Source: an archaeon (GTDB taxonomy: Archaea > Iainarchaeota > Iainarchaeia > Iainarchaeales > CSSED10-239). From it: DNA of 16,770 nt. The DNA lies in contig JBAWVI010000006.1 in the NCBI GenBank assembly GCA_037147375.1, positions 1 through 16,770 of the forward strand, in the 5' to 3' direction. The position numbers and the translations under genes are program-made. This document shows positions 4,105-16,770 of the stretch, piece after piece (positions within the stretch are counted from its first letter, which is position 1; each line of letters begins with the position of its first letter). A model generated the notes under the pieces. It saw nothing but the letters and a program-made list of their open reading frames with translations. It was not told where the DNA came from and ran no database searches.

Positions 4105-4614
4105 ATGAAAAATAAAATAGTTGGAATTTTAATAATTATAATGGCTTTGTTAATTGGTGGAATAATTTATTTATTCAATCATGCAATGACAAAGATTGTT
4201 AATGAATCTTGTTCTCATGGTGCTAGTTGTACTATGTGGGATACAATTAATTTTGAAACAAACATAAGTATAGGTATCATGGCTCTCGTGGTTTTAATTG
4301 GACTTTATTTAATATTTTTTGGTAAAGAAGAAAAAATCATAACCAAAATCGAAATAAAAAGAATTAAAGAAAAGGTACATGATCAAAAACCAAAAAAAGA
4401 TTATAACAAGGTGCTTTCTGAGCTTGCAAGCGATGAAAGACAAGTTTTTGAAAAAATCATTGCAAGCAATGGTTCTATTTATCAATCTGATCTTCTTTCA
4501 AAAACTGGGTTTACTAAGGTTAAGGTTAGCAGAATTCTTGATAAGCTCGAATTTAAAGAATTAATTGAAAGAAAGAGAAGAGGAATGACAAATATCATAA
4601 TTTTAAAAAACTAA
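4105..4614 (+). CDS. membrane-tethered winged-helix (MarR/TrmB-like) transcriptional regulator with an extracytoplasmic CX5C loop
   Basis: 169 aa. TM1 at about residues 5-24. External loop 25-52 contains H26, M28, C36-S-H-G-A-S-C42, M44 and W45. TM2 at about 53-72 is followed by a K/E-rich segment, consistent with the positive-inside rule. C-terminal wHTH-like region: ERQVFEKIIASNGSIYQSDLLSKTGFTKVKVSRILDKLEFKELIERKRRG. Starts 25 nt after leuS. Confidence 0.7.
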   Translation: MKNKIVGILIIIMALLIGGIIYLFNHAMTKIVNESCSHGASCTMWDTINFETNISIGIMALVVLIGLYLIFFGKEEKIITKIEIKRIKEKVHDQKPKKDYNKVLSELASDERQVFEKIIASNGSIYQSDLLSKTGFTKVKVSRILDKLEFKELIERKRRGMTNIIILKN

Positions 4615-4764: not shown

Positions 4765-4968
4765 ATGAACAAAGAATTTGAAGTTAAGGGTATGCATTGT
4801 AAAAGCTGTGAATTCTTAATTAAGGAAGGACTTCTTGATAAAAATGGAATCTCTGAGGTTAGTGCTTCATCAGCTAATGGAAAGATTAAGGTTTCATTTG
4901 ATGAAAACAAGATTAGTGAACTTAAGATTAAAGAAACAATAAGAGAGAAAGGTTATAAGGTGAAATAA
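4765..4968 (+). CDS. copZ: CopZ-like heavy-metal-associated (HMA) copper chaperone
   Basis: 67 aa. GMHCKSC (MxCxxC) at residues 9-15 (4789-4809). Length and pattern fit the beta-alpha-beta-beta-alpha-beta HMA fold. Strong SD GAGGTG lies 8 nt upstream. Confidence 0.85.
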   Translation: MNKEFEVKGMHCKSCEFLIKEGLLDKNGISEVSASSANGKIKVSFDENKISELKIKETIREKGYKVK

Positions 4969-4969
4969 A

Positions 4970-5647
4970 TTGAGCAAACATAATTTTGAAATTGAAAAAA
5001 GAGCTATATTAATTACTTTTTTAACATTTATAGTTGCTTTAATAGCAGAAGTTGGAATTCATTTCTTGTTTCTAAAAAGTTCAGGAATAATGATTAAGTA
5101 TGCCTTATGGTTTTTATATCTAAACATAAGTATTGCATTTCTTACTGGGAGCATATGGCACTTTTTAGCATACAAAACAAAAATAAATTGTATGACTGGA
5201 ATGATGATAGGAATGACTCTTGGAATGCAAGCAGGAATGATGATTGGTGCTGTTGTTGGTGCTACAAATGGTTTCTTTATTGGAGCAATGACAGGAACAA
5301 TAATTGGAGTAGGAATTGGTTTTTGGGCTGGACTTCATTCAAAAACAACAATGGGTGCTCTCCAAGGTATGATGTCTGGGATCATGGGAGGAACAATGGG
5401 ACCTATGATAACAGTTATGATGTTTTCTGATCATCTAAATGTTTTCATGCCAATCTATATGATAATCAATGTTGCAATACTAGTTGGGATGTCATATATG
5501 TTCTGGGAAGAAGCAGTTAAAGATAATCATGAAGAATATAAGAAAGTACCAATAGATATTACAACAACAATATTTGTTACAATAATTGTAACATTTGTTT
5601 TAAGTGCAGTAATCTTATTTTTACCAAGATCTGCATTTTTAGGATAA
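4970..5647 (+). CDS. Met-rich glycine-zipper polytopic membrane protein (uncharacterised; candidate Cu(I)-handling component)
   Basis: 225 aa. TTG start 1 nt after the copZ stop, with SD AAGGTGA (4957-4963) 6 nt upstream. About 6-7 hydrophobic segments. 22 Met by my count. The core (residues 75-151) has 16 Met. Gly occupies 16 of the 17 positions 77+4k. No known family recognised. Confidence 0.7.
   Translation: MSKHNFEIEKRAILITFLTFIVALIAEVGIHFLFLKSSGIMIKYALWFLYLNISIAFLTGSIWHFLAYKTKINCMTGMMIGMTLGMQAGMMIGAVVGATNGFFIGAMTGTIIGVGIGFWAGLHSKTTMGALQGMMSGIMGGTMGPMITVMMFSDHLNVFMPIYMIINVAILVGMSYMFWEEAVKDNHEEYKKVPIDITTTIFVTIIVTFVLSAVILFLPRSAFLG
5198..5392 (+). repeat. degenerate 12-nt coding periodicity (GGN-NNN-NNN-NNN) encoding the in-register (GxxxG)n segment
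   Basis: Reads as ggaatgatgata ggaatgactctt ggaatgcaagca ggaatgatgatt ggtgctgttgtt ggtgctacaaat ggtttctttatt ggagcaatgaca ggaacaataatt ggagtaggaatt ggtttttgggct gga. One off-register unit (Lys125) follows, then four more in-register units. ggaatgatgat occurs twice (5198, 5234). Confidence 0.6.
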
Positions 5648-5672: not shown

Positions 5673-6188
5673 ATGAAACAAAAAAAAACATTAGTTTTAG
5701 GAATAGTAGTTATTGCAATAATTGTGGTTTTTGGAATAATCTCAGCTTATGCATTTACTACTCCATCAAAAACAATAACTAATACAAATAACACGTTATC
5801 AAACAATAACACAGTGTTTAATGGAAATCAAGAAACACAAACCGCAACTTTAAGTTTTAAGAATTATGAATACGTGCTAACACCAAACACCTTAAAGAAA
5901 GGCGTTCCAGTGAAGATTACAGTTGATACAACAACAGTTGTTGGGTGTATGAGAGATGTAGTTATTGGAGACTTTGGAGTAAGAAAGTATGTAACTCCAA
6001 CAGATAACGTAATTGAGTTCACACCAAATAAAGATGGTACATTCTTGATTGCTTGTTCAATGAACATGGGAAGAGGTTTCTTCTCAGTTAGTTCAGAGGG
6101 AGTAACTAATGCAATCACTGAAGCAGCAATTCAAACTGCAAAAGAAGCTTCACCAAAATCAAGTGGTGGATGCGGGTGCGGAAACTAA
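5673..6188 (+). CDS. membrane-anchored/secreted cupredoxin-like (Cupredoxin_1-type) metal-binding protein with a C-terminal CGCG tail
   Basis: 171 aa. N-terminal signal-anchor (LVLGIVVIAIIVVFGIISAYA). Asn/Thr-rich linker. The domain (LKKGVPVKITVDTTTVVGCMRDVVIGDFGV...VIEFTPNKDGTFLIACSMNMGRGFFSV) matches the G-C...F-x-C-x-M-x-M pattern I associate with cupredoxin-like proteins found next to copper ATPases. Ends in SSGGCGCGN. SD AAGGAGA (5658-5664). Confidence 0.7.
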   Translation: MKQKKTLVLGIVVIAIIVVFGIISAYAFTTPSKTITNTNNTLSNNNTVFNGNQETQTATLSFKNYEYVLTPNTLKKGVPVKITVDTTTVVGCMRDVVIGDFGVRKYVTPTDNVIEFTPNKDGTFLIACSMNMGRGFFSVSSEGVTNAITEAAIQTAKEASPKSSGGCGCGN

Positions 6189-6222: not shown

Positions 6223-8424
6223 ATGAAAAAAAAAGAAATTAATCTTTCAATTAAAGGAATGCATTGTGCAAGTTGTTCAACATTAATAGAAAATGGACTT
6301 AATAAAAAAGAAGGAATAATTTCTACAAACGTAAATCTTACTACTGAAAAAGCAACAGTTGTTTTTGATCAAGAGACTATAACTTCTCTTGAGATTATAA
6401 AAACAATAGAAGGAAAAGGATATGGTGCTGAATTAATTGATTTAGATCAAGATCCAACTAAGCTTAAGGAAGAGAAGAAGAAAGATTTTCAAAAATTAAA
6501 AAATCTTTTCATATTTGCGTTAGTGTTTGCAATTCCAACTTTAATTATGATGATCTTAGGTTGGTTTGGTATTGAAATGCCATATATGGATTACATCTTG
6601 TTTGTGCTTGCAACTCCAGTTCAATTTATTGCTGGCTTTGGATTTTATAAAGGCACATGGGGTGCACTAAGAAACAAGAGTGCAAACATGGACACTCTTG
6701 TGTCTATTGGAACTCTTTCTGCATATCTATTAAGTGTATATAATGTTTTGTTAAGTCCTGGTAGTCCACAATACTTTGAAATATCAATAATATTAATTAC
6801 TCTTGTTCTTCTTGGTAAGCTTCTTGAAGCAATTGCAAAAGGAAGAACAAGTGAAGCAATTAAGAAATTAATTAATCTTTCTCCAAAAACAGCTATTGTT
6901 ATAAAGAATGGAAAAGAAATAATTGTTTCTGTTGAAGATCTTAAGGTAGGAGACATCTTTTTAGTTAAACCAGGAGAAAGAATTCCAGTTGATGGAATAA
7001 TTATTGAAGGAGACTCATCTATTGATGAAAGCATGATAACTGGAGAGAGCATGCCTATTGAAAAAAGAAAAGGAGATTCTGTTATTGGTGCAACAATTAA
7101 CAAACACGGAATCTTAAAGGTTAGAGCAACAAAAGTTGGGAAAGATACAACTCTTGCACATATAATCAAACTTGTTGAAGATGCTCAAGGAAAGAAAGCA
7201 CCTATTCAAAGATTTGCAGATAATGTTTCATCTTACTTTGTTCCAATTGTTATTGGAATTGCTTTGGTTTCAGGTCTTGTTTGGTATCTATTAATGGGTG
7301 AAACTCTATCTTTCTCTATACTTATTGCAGTTGGTGTTCTAGTTATTGCTTGTCCATGCGCTTTAGGGCTTGCTACCCCCACAGCAATCATGGTTGGAAC
7401 AGGAAAGGGTGCAGAAAATGGTATCCTAATCAAAGGTGGAGATGCCTTAGAAACAGCACATAAACTAAAGTACATGATATTTGATAAAACAGGAACATTA
7501 ACTATAGGTAAACCTGTTGTTACTGAAATAATTCCAAGCAAAGGAGTAACAAGTAATCAATTTCTTGAAATTGCAAGCAGTATTGAAAAGAACTCAGAGC
7601 ACCCTCTTGCAGAAGCAATTGTAAATTATGGAAAAGAAAAGAAAATAAGTTTTAAGAACACAATAAACTTTAAGGCTATACCTGGTTATGGAATAACTGC
7701 AAAGCTAAATAAAAAAACATATTATTTTGGAAACACAAAGCTTATGGCACAAAAGAATATTCCATACAAAAGCATTTTAGAAAAAATGCAAGAGCTTGAA
7801 ACTAAAGGAAAAACAGTAATGATATTAAGTGATGAGAAAAAAGTTCTTGGAATTATTGGAGTTGCGGATATAATTAAAGATTCATCTCCAAAAGCAGTAA
7901 GTGAGCTTAAGAAACTTGGAATAATTACTTACATGATAACTGGAGATAACAAGAGAACAGCAGATGCTATTGCAAAGCAGGTTGGAATTGAAAATGTATT
8001 TTCAGAAGTCCTTCCAGAAGATAAAGCAAGCTATGTTAAGAAGCTTCAAGAGAATGGAAAATACAAGGTTGGAATGGTTGGAGATGGAATAAATGATTCA
8101 CCAGCTTTAGCTCAAGCAGATATTGGAATTGCTATGGGAAGTGGAACAGATGTAGCAATGGAAACAGGAAACATTATTCTTATGAAAAGTGATTTAGAAG
8201 ATGTTCCAAAAGCAATTAAGTTATCAAAGCAAACAATGAGAAAGATTAAGCAGAACATGTTTTGGGCTCTCTTCTATAATGTAATTGGAATACCAATTGC
8301 AGCGGGAGTTCTATACCTTTCAACAGGTTGGCTTTTATCTCCAATAATTGCAGGAGGAGCAATGGCCCTTAGCAGTGTAAGTGTAGTAACAAATTCACTT
8401 ATGCTTAAGAAAAAGAAATTATAA
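6223..8424 (+). CDS. copA: copper-translocating P1B-type ATPase
   Basis: 733 aa. One N-terminal HMA domain (GMHCASC). TGES (ITGES). CPC in TM6 at 7351-7359 ([13 protein letters not shown]). Phosphorylation site DKTGT at 7483-7497. HP (SEHPLA). Hinge [10 protein letters not shown]. Confidence 0.95.
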
Positions 8425-8498: not shown

Positions 8499-8756
8499 AT
8501 GATAAATGCAAGAATTTGTTTAGATGATGAAGCTAATAAAATATTAAATATATTTAAAGCAAAGAATGGGTTTAAAGATAAAAGTGAAGCAATTAATAAT
8601 TTTGTAAAGACTTATGGCAAACACGAAATATATCCAGAAGTTAAAGATGAATATATTTATGAGATGGAAAAAGGAATTGCTCAATACCTAAAGAGTAATC
8701 CAAATTTTAAGAAAAGTATTACAAAAAAGGAATTAGATAAATTGTTCAAGAAGTGA
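8499..8756 (+). CDS. ribbon-helix-helix-like antitoxin (resembles archaeal DUF2683-type small proteins)
   Basis: 85 aa. The N-terminus (INARICLDDEANKILNIFKAKNGFKDKSEAINNFVK) fits a beta-strand/helix/helix RHH layout. SD AAGGTGAT lies 3 nt upstream. The stop is 4 nt before the next ORF. Confidence 0.55.
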   Translation: MINARICLDDEANKILNIFKAKNGFKDKSEAINNFVKTYGKHEIYPEVKDEYIYEMEKGIAQYLKSNPNFKKSITKKELDKLFKK

Positions 8757-8760
8757 TATC

Positions 8761-9042
8761 TTGGTATTCAGATATGATTTATCAGATAATCTTAAAGATA
8801 AAATAAAAAAGTTATCTAAAAAGGATCCTTTACTTATAGATATTCTCTATAAAAAAATTAATGAAATAATATCTCAAACCCCAGAAACAATTGAGCACTA
8901 TAAAAATTTAAGAAATGAGTTATCTAATAGAATGAGAGTGCATATCGGAAAAAGTCATGTATTAACATTTGTATACTATAAGCAAGATAATTTTATTTTA
9001 TTTTGGGATTTTGCACATCATGATGAAATTTATAAAAAATAA
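8761..9042 (+). CDS. RelE/ParE-superfamily toxin-like protein
   Basis: 93 aa with a TTG start. The pattern F.Y.LS....KIKKL.KKD......I.KKI.EI...P....YK.L...LS...R.HIGK.HVL.F......FIL.WDF.HHDEIYKK matches the RelE/ParE layout as I recall it (helical N-terminus, R-x-R/H-I-G core, C-terminal H...Y). It is paired with a small upstream RHH gene. Confidence 0.55.
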   Translation: MVFRYDLSDNLKDKIKKLSKKDPLLIDILYKKINEIISQTPETIEHYKNLRNELSNRMRVHIGKSHVLTFVYYKQDNFILFWDFAHHDEIYKK

Positions 9043-14218: not shown

Positions 14219-14249
14219 ACGTCAAATATAAAGAATTTTTGCATTTCTT

Positions 14250-16770
14250 TGATTTCAATTAAGCTAATTAGTGGATAACTTGGCTTGTAAACCGAGTAAG
14301 AGCGTGGCAAGCTGCGATAAGCTTGGGGTAGGCGCATGCAGCCTTTGATCCCAAGATTCTTGAATTATCCAATCTCATAAAGGAGGTTGGAGGGTAACCT
14401 AGGGAATTGAAGCATCTTAGTACCTAGAGGAAAAGAAAACAATAGTGATACTGTTAATAGGGTCGACCGAAAACAGTGAAGAACAAACCGAATCTCATAT
14501 AGCAATATATGAGACATGTGGTGTTAAGAGGTAGTTACATCTAATGCACTCAAAATCGAAGTTGTCTGGAAAGACATACCATAGAGGGTGATAGTCCCGT
14601 AGAGATAAGGTGACAAGAGATGATTGCTGCTGTTCGAGAGTACTGCGCGTCGGATATCGCGTAGGAATACTGGCAGGCATTTACTGCTAATTCTAAATAT
14701 TTTACAAGACCGATAGTAAACGAGTACTGCGAAGGAATGTTGAAAAGTACCCCTAGCGGGGGGTTAAAAGCACTTGAAACTAATTAGCGACAGTTCGGGT
14801 ATGGCATGAAAGGAATGAAGGTAGACAATAAGTGAGTGTTGGTAACGGCATAAGCGTGTTCTGCTGGATCAATGTCATACTGTCCGTCAAGAAGCACGGG
14901 CGAGGGAGTTTGTTTATGTGGCAAGATTAAGTGATGAAGTCACTGTGTCATAGGGAAACCGATTTTGCGCAAAATTTCCAGGCAAGAGGTGTTAATGTGC
15001 CTCATAGTCACATGGACAAGACCCGAAAGCAGGTGATAAACGCTTGAACATGGTGAAACCGACCGTCTGGTTGGTGGAGGCCAGCAGCAGTTCCAGTCTA
15101 ACTGTTTGTGTGATTTGAGTGTAGGACTGATAAGGTTATCTAACCTGCTGATAGCGGGCTCCTATCAAAATAACTCTTAGGTTAGCCTGGCTGGAGAATG
15201 ATAACGGGGTAGAGATACTGATTAGGAAGTACTGGGAAGAAATTTCCACCTTCCTTGTCAAACTCCGAATCTGTTATTCTTCTTAGAAGGCCGGAGCAGG
15301 GGGTGGGGGATAAGCCTCTATTCCAAAAGGGAAAAAACCCGAACTACGATTAAGGCCCTTAAATACTAGTTAAGTGTGAACTTGAAAGGAGTGATTTACC
15401 AAATACAATTGGGAGGTTGGCTTAGAAGCAGCCATCCTTTAAAGAGTGCGTAATAGCTCACCAATCTATGGTATTTTGCCCTGAAAATTAACGGGGCTAA
15501 ACTAGTTGCCGAAATCGTAGAGCACAGGAAATCTGTGATCTGGTAGATAGGTGCTTTGATAGAGCAGAAGGTAGGCGGTAACGTCTACTGGATCTGTCAA
15601 AGATATGGATCCTCGTGTCAGTAACATCAAAGAAATGTGAGAATCATTTCCGCCGAAAGGGCAAGGGTTCCTTAGCACTAATTTTTAGCTAAGGGTAAGT
15701 CGATCCTAAAGATCTTCGTAACACGAAAACATCTGAAAGGGAAACAGGTTCATATTCCTGTACCAATAATACACGTGTGGCAACGCAAGTATAGTTTTTA
15801 ACGCTTTTGGCAAGGTGGAGTATGAAAGTCTTCATATCTAAGTGCCACAAATCTCTGGAGAATTGTAATAATGAGAAGGAGATTAATGTACGAATGGGGG
15901 AAACCTTCCATTGTCGTCAAGGGCCCATGAAAAGAAAGCTATACAGTGTTTTATTGCTCGTACCAAGAACTGAGAAAGGTGTCCCTAGCTGAGTAGGCTT
16001 AGGCGTAATAGGAGAACCAAACCAAGGGAATTCGGCAAATTAGCCCTGTATCTTCGGTACAAGGGGTGCTTACGGTTGTGTAAACTGTAAGTTTTAATTA
16101 CAAAGATGGTCCGACTGTTTAACAAAAACACAGGTGACTGCTAGCCGGAAACGGTGTGTATAGTCACTGACTTCTGCTCACTGCTAGTACGTGAACATCA
16201 GTTCCAACTGATCTAAGCGCTGGTAAAGAGCGGGCCTAACTCTGAGGCTCTCATGGTAGCGTAATACCTTGCCGATTAAATGTCGGCTTGCATCAAGGAA
16301 GTAACGAGATCGTCACTGTCCCTGGTTTGGACCTAGTGAACGTGCACTCGTGGTGAATACGCCACGGACAACCAAAGGGAGGATAAGACCCCACGGAGGT
16401 TTACCACAGTCTGATGTTGTTGTATTATTCTTGCTATAGAGCGTAGATGGGAGTCGCTTATGCTACTTTCGCTAGGGAGTAGATAGACACCAATGTAACA
16501 CCATCTAGTGAGAAAAATACATCTTACGTCTCTTGGAGACGGACATCATTTGATTTGGTGGTTGGACTGGGGCGGTACACCCCTGAAAGGATATCAGGGG
16601 TGTCCAAAGGTCTGCTCAGGCTGGTCAGAAATCAGCCGTAGAGGACAAAACCAAAAGCAGGCTTAACAATGTTCCTAAAAGCACGGAACGTTGGAAGGAA
16701 ACTTGGGTTTAGCGAACGCTAGTGTCCCTATTTATGGGGGCCTAGTCTGACAGTGAACTTACCCTGGGGG
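14250..16770 (+). rRNA. rrl: 23S (LSU) rRNA, archaeal type, 5' about 2.5 kb; 3' end beyond the window; 5' end uncertain by about 15 nt
   Basis: Collinear matches to remembered LSU landmarks. GTGGATAACTTGGC (14271). GGCAAGCTGCGATAAGC (14306). GGGAATTGAAGCATCTTAGTACC (14402). GGGTCGACCGAAA (14461; archaeal form). GACCGATAGTAAACGAGTAC (14709). GACCCGAAAGC (15020). GTPase-centre TTGGCTTAGAAGCAGCCATCCTTTAAAGAGTGCGTAATAGCTCACC (15417). GACTGTTTAACAAAAACACAG (16114). AAGACCCCAC (16386). CTGGGGCGG (16567). The window ends at ...CCCTGGGG, roughly E. coli position 2447. GC content is visibly much higher than in the flanking DNA. Confidence 0.95.

Follow-up and report, generated by a model that had tools for sequence, protein, structure and literature searches.

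A seven-helix glycine-zipper and Met-ladder membrane protein in copper gene clusters of DPANN archaea and CPR bacteria, a candidate Cu(I) relay

Cu(I) is known to cross membranes by few routes, namely, P1B ATPases, the RND protein CusA, Ctr1, and carriers of the CopD or CcoA type. Here we analyze a 16,770-nucleotide stretch of archaeal DNA (contig JBAWVI010000006.1, GC content of approximately 29%; called the window below, at its full length), in which an open reading frame (ORF) on the forward strand at 4970 to 5647 encodes a 225-amino-acid protein with seven predicted transmembrane (TM) helices. Its gene lies between copZ on one side and genes for a cupredoxin-like protein and the Cu(I) ATPase CopA on the other. 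A preliminary description made from the DNA alone had singled out the protein for its Met residues and its in-register glycine zipper and had suggested that it conducts or buffers Cu(I). We propose, with confidence that is evenly balanced, that this 7-TM protein serves as a thioether-ladder Cu(I) relay from a cytosolic HMA chaperone to an external CupA-like protein, outward movement being favored.

Proteins of the Ctr1/COPT type (SLC31) have a Met-lined Cu(I) path built from MxxxM motifs, tight helix packing through GxxxG, and a cytosolic end with Cys from which an HMA chaperone receives Cu(I) (PMC6437178 and established knowledge), features that the 7-TM protein would share. The corresponding motifs here are M78/M82/M86, M135/M139/M143, and Gly at every fourth position, a resemblance of motif only. 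Ctr1 is a eukaryotic, obligate trimer of three TM helices per chain with a central pore and Met residues arranged in rings, whereas the protein studied here has seven TM helices, a confident monomer model, and Met stripes that run along single helices. The Ctr/SLC31 model PF04145 gave no match at E values up to 1 in the window protein and 31 family members, and no Ctr1 structure was found among the Foldseek matches in PDB (best TM-score, 0.27).

CupA of Streptococcus pneumoniae, a Cu(I) chaperone anchored in the membrane, has two sites, the bis-thiolate S1 and the Met-rich S2; it has been reported from few streptococci only and has been described to act at the cytoplasmic face (PMC7558416, PMC5646241). 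As in the window, a membrane-anchored cupredoxin fold with a Cys...CxMxM ligand pattern is encoded beside copA in S. pneumoniae (PMC7558416). That system has no counterpart of the 7-TM protein, and its CopA carries a matching cupredoxin domain; in the window, by contrast, CopA has an HMA domain, CopZ is a separate protein, and the CupA-like domain is predicted to lie outside.

CopC-CopD and YcnJ pair an external beta-sandwich Cu domain with a polytopic membrane protein, or fuse the two. The pairing and fusion of the 7-TM protein with cupredoxin domains follow the same logic, but homology is absent by Pfam, as neither the CopD model (PF05425) nor the CopC models matched the 7-TM protein. CopD is expected to have approximately eight TM helices and His-rich ligands in place of a Met/Gly zipper, and it is not known to carry a cytosolic HMA fusion. 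MerT, MerTP, and MerC are similar in that they are of small size and membrane-embedded, receive a thiophilic metal from an HMA protein, are sometimes HMA-fused, and have Cys pairs at the membrane face; they differ in having three or four TM helices, Cys rather than Met ligands, and a periplasmic HMA partner. No match to the 7-TM protein, whose TM1 has no Cys, was obtained with the MerT and MerC models of Pfam or the MerTP model of NCBIfam. For CusA, stepwise movement of Cu(I) along Met pairs and triads has been proposed. The CusA Met triad is mentioned in PMC7558416, and a Met relay would be common to CusA and the 7-TM protein; CusA, however, is a proton-driven RND trimer with 12 TM helices and more than 1,000 residues, unrelated in sequence and fold. 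The actuator, phosphorylation, and nucleotide-binding domains and the DKTGT motif of P1B-type ATPases are all missing from the 225-residue protein, which consists of TM helices only.

Conserved Met, Gly, and Cys residues on a seven-helix model

The ORF begins at a TTG codon 1 nt past the copZ stop codon (TAA, 4966 to 4968). Gly occupies 16 of the 17 every-fourth positions from residue 77 to residue 141, K125 being the sole exception, and the register is ended by P145. With 24 Gly among 225 residues, the hypergeometric probability of such an arrangement is approximately 1e-17 for a single register and approximately 1.6e-15 over all registers. A repeat scan found no tandem DNA repeat beneath the zipper region; the periodicity is therefore a feature of the protein, and an origin from a DNA microsatellite was rejected on this ground. 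The 22 Met of the protein include 16 within residues 75 to 151 and 15 within G77 to F152. The start 1 nt after copZ with its own AAGGTGA element, the Gly register with its Lys125 exception, and the total of 22 Met were all as given in the preliminary description, and its figure of 16 Met in a 77-residue core is correct for residues 75 to 151 but not for the string that it quoted (G77 to F152).

Conservation was computed on 138 cluster representatives with mutual identity of 50% or less. Ten Met residues (M78, M79, M82, M86, M128, M135, M139, M143, M146, and M150) are conserved at 94 to 99% and rank among the most conserved residues of the family, as the suggested metal role had led one to expect; many other TM positions are free to vary in the same representatives. 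In TM3, the values are 97% for M78, 96% for M79, 98% for M82, and 99% for M86, and the six Met of TM5 (128, 135, 139, 143, 146, and 150) are each conserved at 94 to 98%. Gly is present in at least 95% of representatives at positions 81, 85, 89, 93, 101, 105, 117, 133, 137, 141, and 144. Other conserved positions are C74 (77%, with His in another 13%), N100 (89%), D154 (75%), and E181 (79%).

An AlphaFold2 model built with 120 homologues is a confident seven-helix bundle (pLDDT, 93.8; pTM, 0.90) with helices at residues 7 to 34, 45 to 66, 74 to 100, 102 to 123, 127 to 150, 156 to 184, and 197 to 217; the HMA-fused form described below was also modeled confidently (pLDDT, 91.3). The zipper is spread over TM3, TM4, and TM5; residue 101 alone separates the first two of these helices, and a loop of three residues (124 to 126) lies between the second and the third. 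Because it occupies three consecutive helices linked by loops of one to three residues in a confident monomer model, the zipper probably packs within the molecule, and a homo-oligomeric pore does not have to follow from it. The zipper would thus be a helix-packing element, as had been suggested, and need not mark the channel-forming or homo-oligomeric type of protein with which the preliminary description had linked long glycine zippers. A comparison of TM3-4 with TM5-6 as an internal repeat was rejected (hhalign probability, 2.4%).

When the helix limits of the model are combined with ideal helix geometry, the Met residues fall on defined faces. TM3 has C74 at its cytoplasmic end, a Met stripe (M75/78/79/82/86, with M90 and M91 as possible additions) flanking the Gly stripe at 77 to 97, and N100 at the outer turn; its Met cover an arc of 40 to 140 degrees and rise 1.5 to 18 Å from C74, i.e., the cytoplasmic part of the membrane. 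TM4 has Gly at 105, 109, 113, 117, and 121. The six Met of TM5 cover an arc of 80 to 160 degrees and rise from 1.5 to 34.5 Å, which corresponds to the full bilayer.

Most members of the family also have a Cys-Cys pair at the TM4-TM5 junction (GKCCG, at approximately residues 122 to 126), which covaries with residue 132: the pair occurs with Glu in 206 sequences and with Gln in 21, while sequences without these Cys have Glu in 22 cases and Gln in 54 (odds ratio, approximately 24). Such covariation is what one would expect if the pair and Glu132 made up a single site where the cytoplasmic entrance lies. In the window, the protein is of a minority subtype that has no loop Cys, has Gln at 132, and is not fused to an HMA domain. 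The idea that the loop pair tracks HMA fusion was rejected, since 90 unfused members among 364 sequences have the pair.

Searches of sequence and fold databases did not place the protein in a known family. Nothing exceeded threshold in Pfam or NCBIfam for the window protein or for 31 relatives. PF13488 scored 14 bits on the window protein (E = 0.049) against a cutoff of 25 bits, and the best glycine-zipper matches among the 31 members had E values of 0.0023 (PF13441) and 0.011 (PF13488 and PF13436); all three families were rejected, as the matches were below threshold and driven by composition. A family profile searched against PDB chains gave no match at an E value of 0.1 or better for the membrane domain, and the best match overall (E = 0.14) was an HMA protein aligned to the HMA columns of the profile. 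Foldseek against 350,542 PDB chains returned a best E value of 0.25 and TM-scores of 0.27 or less, and a full-text literature search found no description of the 7-TM family. A thiol-disulfide relay of the DsbD/CcdA type was rejected, as the window protein has one conserved Cys only. The preliminary description had not recognized the protein as any named copper protein, and its homologues do not belong to a characterized family in Pfam, NCBIfam, or PDB. It appears to represent a new family with a new fold, within the familiar theme of copper homeostasis.

Partner genes, domain fusions, and membrane topology

Gene neighborhoods were counted in 80 species-representative loci. A cupredoxin gene lies immediately downstream of the 7-TM gene in 71 and anywhere in the locus in 76; CopA is encoded in 69, with exceptions mostly at contig ends; and a separate small HMA gene is present in 64, being immediately upstream in 47. 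Synteny with copper genes is thus very strong, and it spans both domains: it is also seen in Micrarchaeota and Aenigmarchaeota loci, a Magasanikbacteria contig encodes a fusion protein, an HMA protein, and a P-type ATPase, and a locus of Uhrbacteria (L085, 6001 to 7588) has the 7-TM and cupredoxin genes followed by a MerC-family gene, with CopA absent within 6 kb. As the Uhrbacteria pair occurs without a nearby CopA, the invariant core is the 7-TM protein plus the cupredoxin. In the window, the gaps between copZ, the 7-TM gene, the cupredoxin gene, and copA are 1, 25, and 34 nt, so that co-transcription from copZ to copA is likely. All neighbors named earlier were confirmed with Pfam, i.e., copZ (HMA), the Cupredoxin_1 gene, and the P1B-type copA. 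Unannotated ORFs of 89 to 279 amino acids with no Pfam match recur between the cupredoxin gene and copA in other loci (L001, 9438 to 9740; L002, 5140 to 5409; L086, 5341 to 5817; L084, 8038 to 9317) and are absent from the window.

The frequent presence of CopA raises the question of whether the 7-TM protein is a membrane Cu(I) buffer or an accessory of the ATPase, which would hand Cu(I) sideways to the CopA entry site or from its exit site and dock the CupA-like protein. Buffering was also put forward in the preliminary description, the HMA domain fused to many members resembles the N-terminal metal-binding domain of CopA, and a role of this kind would remove the energy problem, as ATP hydrolysis by CopA would drive transport. 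The tightest link of the 7-TM gene, however, is to the adjacent CupA-like gene, and this pair is also found where the surrounding 6 kb lack CopA. Fusions of family members to CopA were not observed, and a one-sided buffer would have no need of a Met stripe that spans the bilayer in TM5. We consider an accessory or buffering role unlikely, though a serious option.

The cupredoxin-like partner is a homologue of CupA. It matched S. pneumoniae CupA (PDB 4F2E/2MRY) with an E value of 2.2e-8 and the cupredoxin-type metal-binding domain in CopA from the same species (4F2F) with one of 4.5e-6, and both the bridging Cys and the CxMxM Cu(I) ligands of CupA are aligned in it. The product of 5673 to 6188 thus combines a cupredoxin fold, the Cys...Cys-x-Met-x-Met pattern, and an N-terminal membrane anchor, which is followed by a Thr/Asn-rich stalk and a C-terminal GGCGCGN tail. 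Among the cupredoxin neighbors, nearly all keep CxMxM, and the general layout is a K/R-rich N-terminal tail, one anchor helix, and a Ser/Thr/Asn-rich stalk; two paralogues have, in place of the plain anchor, lipobox-type signal peptides (VAAC and VAGC; L031, 10273 to 10623, and L039, 7488 to 7898). That the CupA-like domain faces outside is predicted from the charge-biased anchor, from the variants with a lipobox, and from fusion to the C-terminal, outward end of the 7-TM protein. S. pneumoniae CupA is described as facing the cytoplasm, where it serves a cupredoxin-type domain of CopA; here, CopA carries an HMA domain instead and the CupA-like domain is predicted to lie outside, and the natural partner of the CupA-like protein would therefore be the 7-TM protein. 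A Gly/Cys-rich C-terminal tail is present in 56 of 84 neighbors (SSGGCGCGN here, at 6160 to 6185; typically SCGxxxGGCGCGG(R)) but not in S. pneumoniae CupA; this tail may serve as a further Cu(I)-thiolate site or as a signal for modification or sorting. Six loci (L039, L042, L061, L074, L076, and L081) have CupA-like genes in tandem pairs.

Fusions join the 7-TM protein to the chaperone and cupredoxin partners that the preliminary description had linked to it. An HMA domain that has CxSC and is not preceded by a signal peptide forms the N-terminal part of approximately 75 among the 120 closest homologues and of 181 among 364 sequences overall, and a C-terminal Cupredoxin_1 domain directly follows TM7 in P0129 and P0229; in the genome that encodes P0129, a YHS/HMA P-type ATPase lies approximately 1.3 kb downstream. 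As the predicted number of TM helices is odd, the N-terminal HMA and C-terminal cupredoxin domains would lie on opposite sides of the membrane. Across 258 homologues, Lys and Arg together average 8.06 in the N-terminal tail and loops 2-3, 4-5, and 6-7 versus 2.49 elsewhere, which favors a cytoplasmic N terminus. The charge count, both kinds of fusion, and the layout of the kinase fusion described next agree, and we predict an N-in, C-out topology, under which C74, E132, and the loop with the Cys-Cys pair would all sit on the cytoplasmic side, with the cupredoxin domain on the outer one.

P0240, from a JGI contig of 2 kb, consists of an HMA domain, TM1-5, one extra TM helix, and a HisKA_3/HATPase_c histidine kinase, and the Met/Gly domain appears to have been recruited there as a sensor input. 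That the family as a whole acts as a membrane Cu(I) sensor or signal transducer, informing the DUF7343 regulator or other effectors of the Cu load in the membrane or cytosol, is a reading that draws on this fusion and on the membrane-anchored regulator encoded upstream of copZ, homologues of which are present in 44 of the 80 loci. The kinase fusion is known, however, from this single contig, the regulator has a conserved Cys/His/Met loop of its own that could sense metal, and adjacency and fusion to the CupA-like domain would be left unexplained; we regard a sensory role as very improbable.

A role unrelated to metal, in which the zipper and Met residues would be structural, for example, in a scaffold or insertion helper for the anchored neighbor, with an indirect copper link only, appears extremely improbable. 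Gly zippers occur in many unrelated membrane proteins, the family has only weak, sub-threshold matches to glycine-zipper models in Pfam, and its metal binding is read from sequence. Such a role would nonetheless leave unaccounted for the ten near-invariant Met on defined faces, the conserved Cys74, and the Cys-Cys/Glu site, as well as direct fusion to HMA domains that retain CxxC and an occurrence exclusively in copper gene clusters.

A proposed Cu(I) relay and its direction

In the relay that we propose, the in-register Gly stripes would pack the antiparallel TM3, TM4, and TM5, which are joined by loops of one to three residues, very tightly. Cu(I) would be delivered by a cytosolic HMA domain, which is CopZ here and the fused domain in about half of the family, and would pass to thiolates at the cytoplasmic face, namely, Cys74 and, in most members, the loop Cys-Cys pair together with Glu132. 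From there it may move by ligand exchange along the thioether ladder, the TM3 stripe leading from Cys74 to mid-membrane and the TM5 stripe across the full bilayer, to be exchanged at the outer face with the product of the next gene, the CupA-like protein with its membrane anchor. Outward movement would serve detoxification or the loading of an external CupA-like sink, alongside or jointly with CopA; this direction is favored because the gene lies within a copZ/copA operon with its own regulator. We infer binding, movement across the membrane, direction, and energy source from sequence patterns and models.

Several points weigh against this proposal. Cu(I) binding and transport are predictions for every member of the family, and the Met faces derive from an ideal helix, which would look the same for an inner path and for a lipid-facing surface. 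Both the membrane potential and the very low free Cu of the cytosol would draw Cu+ inward through a passive conduit, and outward flux would therefore need a coupling mechanism. Within the membrane, E132 is the one carboxylate that is conserved, and the window protein has Gln there; its subtype also has neither the pair of loop Cys nor an HMA fusion. One CPR locus combines the 7-TM and cupredoxin genes with a gene of MerC type, i.e., an uptake type, and has no CopA within 6 kb. Finally, the only characterized homologue of the partner, S. pneumoniae CupA, is described to work at the cytoplasmic face (PMC7558416), versus the external position predicted here.

Some of these points would fit high-affinity uptake instead: Cu(I) bound outside by the CupA-like protein would follow the membrane potential inward along the ladder and end on the cytoplasmic Cys and HMA domains. 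The layout of a Met path, cytosolic Cys, and HMA chaperone mirrors that of Ctr1 (PMC6437178 and established knowledge). Influx would be thermodynamically easier through a passive cation path, and the MerC-type gene adjoins the pair in the Uhrbacteria locus that has no CopA nearby. A parallel is offered by CopC/CopD, which pairs a cupredoxin-like protein of the periplasm with a membrane protein and is regarded as an uptake system. Against uptake, the gene is packed at spacings of 1 to 34 nt between copZ and a P1B-1 efflux ATPase, apparently under one regulator, and co-expression of an importer with an exporter would be futile or harmful. Moreover, DPANN and CPR organisms reportedly lack respiratory chains, so that few cuproenzymes, and little demand for imported Cu, are expected in them. 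Overall, uptake seems to us rather unlikely, and the outward relay is the reading we prefer.

Taken at the level of the family, the relay would define an ATPase-independent Cu(I) translocator with a fold that is not in PDB, confined to DPANN and CPR, whose trans-bilayer Met ladder, braced by a triple glycine zipper inside the molecule, wires a cytosolic HMA chaperone directly to an extracellular one of the CupA type; we put this broader claim slightly short of an even chance. If it is true, the family would represent a distinct solution for Cu(I), with a new fold, a thioether stripe that spans the bilayer, and chaperone domains fused on either side, and it would offer a compact model of 225 residues for metal conduction by ligand exchange. 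CupA-type chaperones, reported from a few streptococci, would then be known also from two large uncultured radiations, and from outside the cell. DPANN and CPR organisms would be seen to retain a dedicated copper module in genomes that are minimal, and apparently to exchange it; the module could be used as a marker for their ecology in metal-bearing groundwater.

Distribution of the family and other features of the window

A word-indexed search found 244 relatives of the 7-TM protein, and a profile search of 1.84 billion cluster representatives (clusters at 50% identity) found 619 clusters at an E value of 1e-3 or less and 138 at 1e-30 or less. The gene is present in 196 GTDB species genomes. 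A protein identical to that of the window stands in public records as "MAG: hypothetical protein [archaeon]." Named members include Woesearchaeota, Nanoarchaeia, Micrarchaeota, Aenigmarchaeota, and Burarchaeum among DPANN archaea and Magasanikbacteria and Uhrbacteria in the candidate phyla radiation (CPR/Patescibacteria). All named members belong to one or the other of these ultra-small, host-dependent radiations, so the family is not general to archaea, and the pattern suggests cross-domain exchange of the copper module. Some GTDB records labeled Methanosarcinales or Alphaproteobacteria (e.g., L012 and L035) have near-identical loci of the Woesearchaeota type and are probably mislabeled bins. 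Many family members are misnamed in public records, which is of practical concern: they appear as hypothetical proteins or as "cation transporter," "P-type ATPase," or "chloride channel," misnomers of which the first two, for instance, stem from the fused HMA domain.

Coordinates of the 7-TM gene, its helices, and neighboring features in the window
Feature	Position	Strand	Basis
Membrane-anchored winged-helix regulator (DUF7343/MarR-like)	4105..4614	+	Pfam DUF7343 (E = 1.7e-12), MarR (E = 1.6e-6)
copZ, 67-amino-acid HMA metallochaperone with CKSC motif	4765..4968	+	Pfam HMA (E = 4.3e-13)
AAGGTGA, Shine-Dalgarno-like, within 3' end of copZ, 6 nt ahead of TTG	4957..4963	+	Sequence inspection
7-TM Gly-zipper/Met-ladder membrane protein, predicted N-in/C-out	4970..5647	+	ORF, AlphaFold2 model, charge count in homologues
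TM3, residues 74-100	5189..5269	+	AlphaFold2 helix limits, conservation, helical wheel
TM4, residues 102-123, Gly-only zipper helix between Met-bearing helices	5273..5338	+	AlphaFold2 limits, conservation
Cytoplasmic TM4-TM5 loop, S124-K125-T126	5339..5347	+	Homologue alignment
TM5, residues 127-150, trans-bilayer Met stripe and Gly 129-144	5348..5419	+	Conservation, helical wheel
CupA-like cupredoxin Cu(I) chaperone, predicted extracytoplasmic	5673..6188	+	Pfam Cupredoxin_1; PDB CupA matches
copA, P1B-1 type Cu(I) ATPase	6223..8424	+	Pfam E1-E2_ATPase (1.3e-61), Hydrolase, HMA

The copZ product has the HMA fold with a CxxC motif, and it matched the NCBIfam CopZ model with an E value of 1.3e-15 and 57.3 bits, below the curated 91-bit cutoff of that model. 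The translation of copA contains an N-terminal HMA domain and the Cu(I)-type motifs CPC, YN, and MALSS. The regulator, which is a probable metal-responsive regulator of the cluster, has two N-terminal TM helices on either side of a CSHGASCTMW loop. Homologues keep this loop in one of two forms, C[ST]HGxxCxMW, to which the window sequence belongs, and C[YF]L[ED]DGTCLH. With the loop predicted to be external, the protein looks like a membrane-bound one-component sensor of external metal; we know of no such membrane-bound copper regulator described in archaea. Two other loci (L086 and L087) have a PadR-type regulator within the cluster.

Just past copA, two small ORFs of 85 and 93 amino acids (8499 to 8756 and 8761 to 9042, both on the forward strand) are separated by a 4-nt gap; neither has a Pfam match, and their layout resembles that of a toxin-antitoxin pair. 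An archaeal 23S rRNA gene starts at 14247 on the forward strand and continues past the 3' end of the window at 16770. The 14 kb upstream of it contain no 16S gene, and the rRNA genes thus appear to be unlinked. A tRNA-Asp(GTC) gene is located at 1051 to 1123 on the forward strand.

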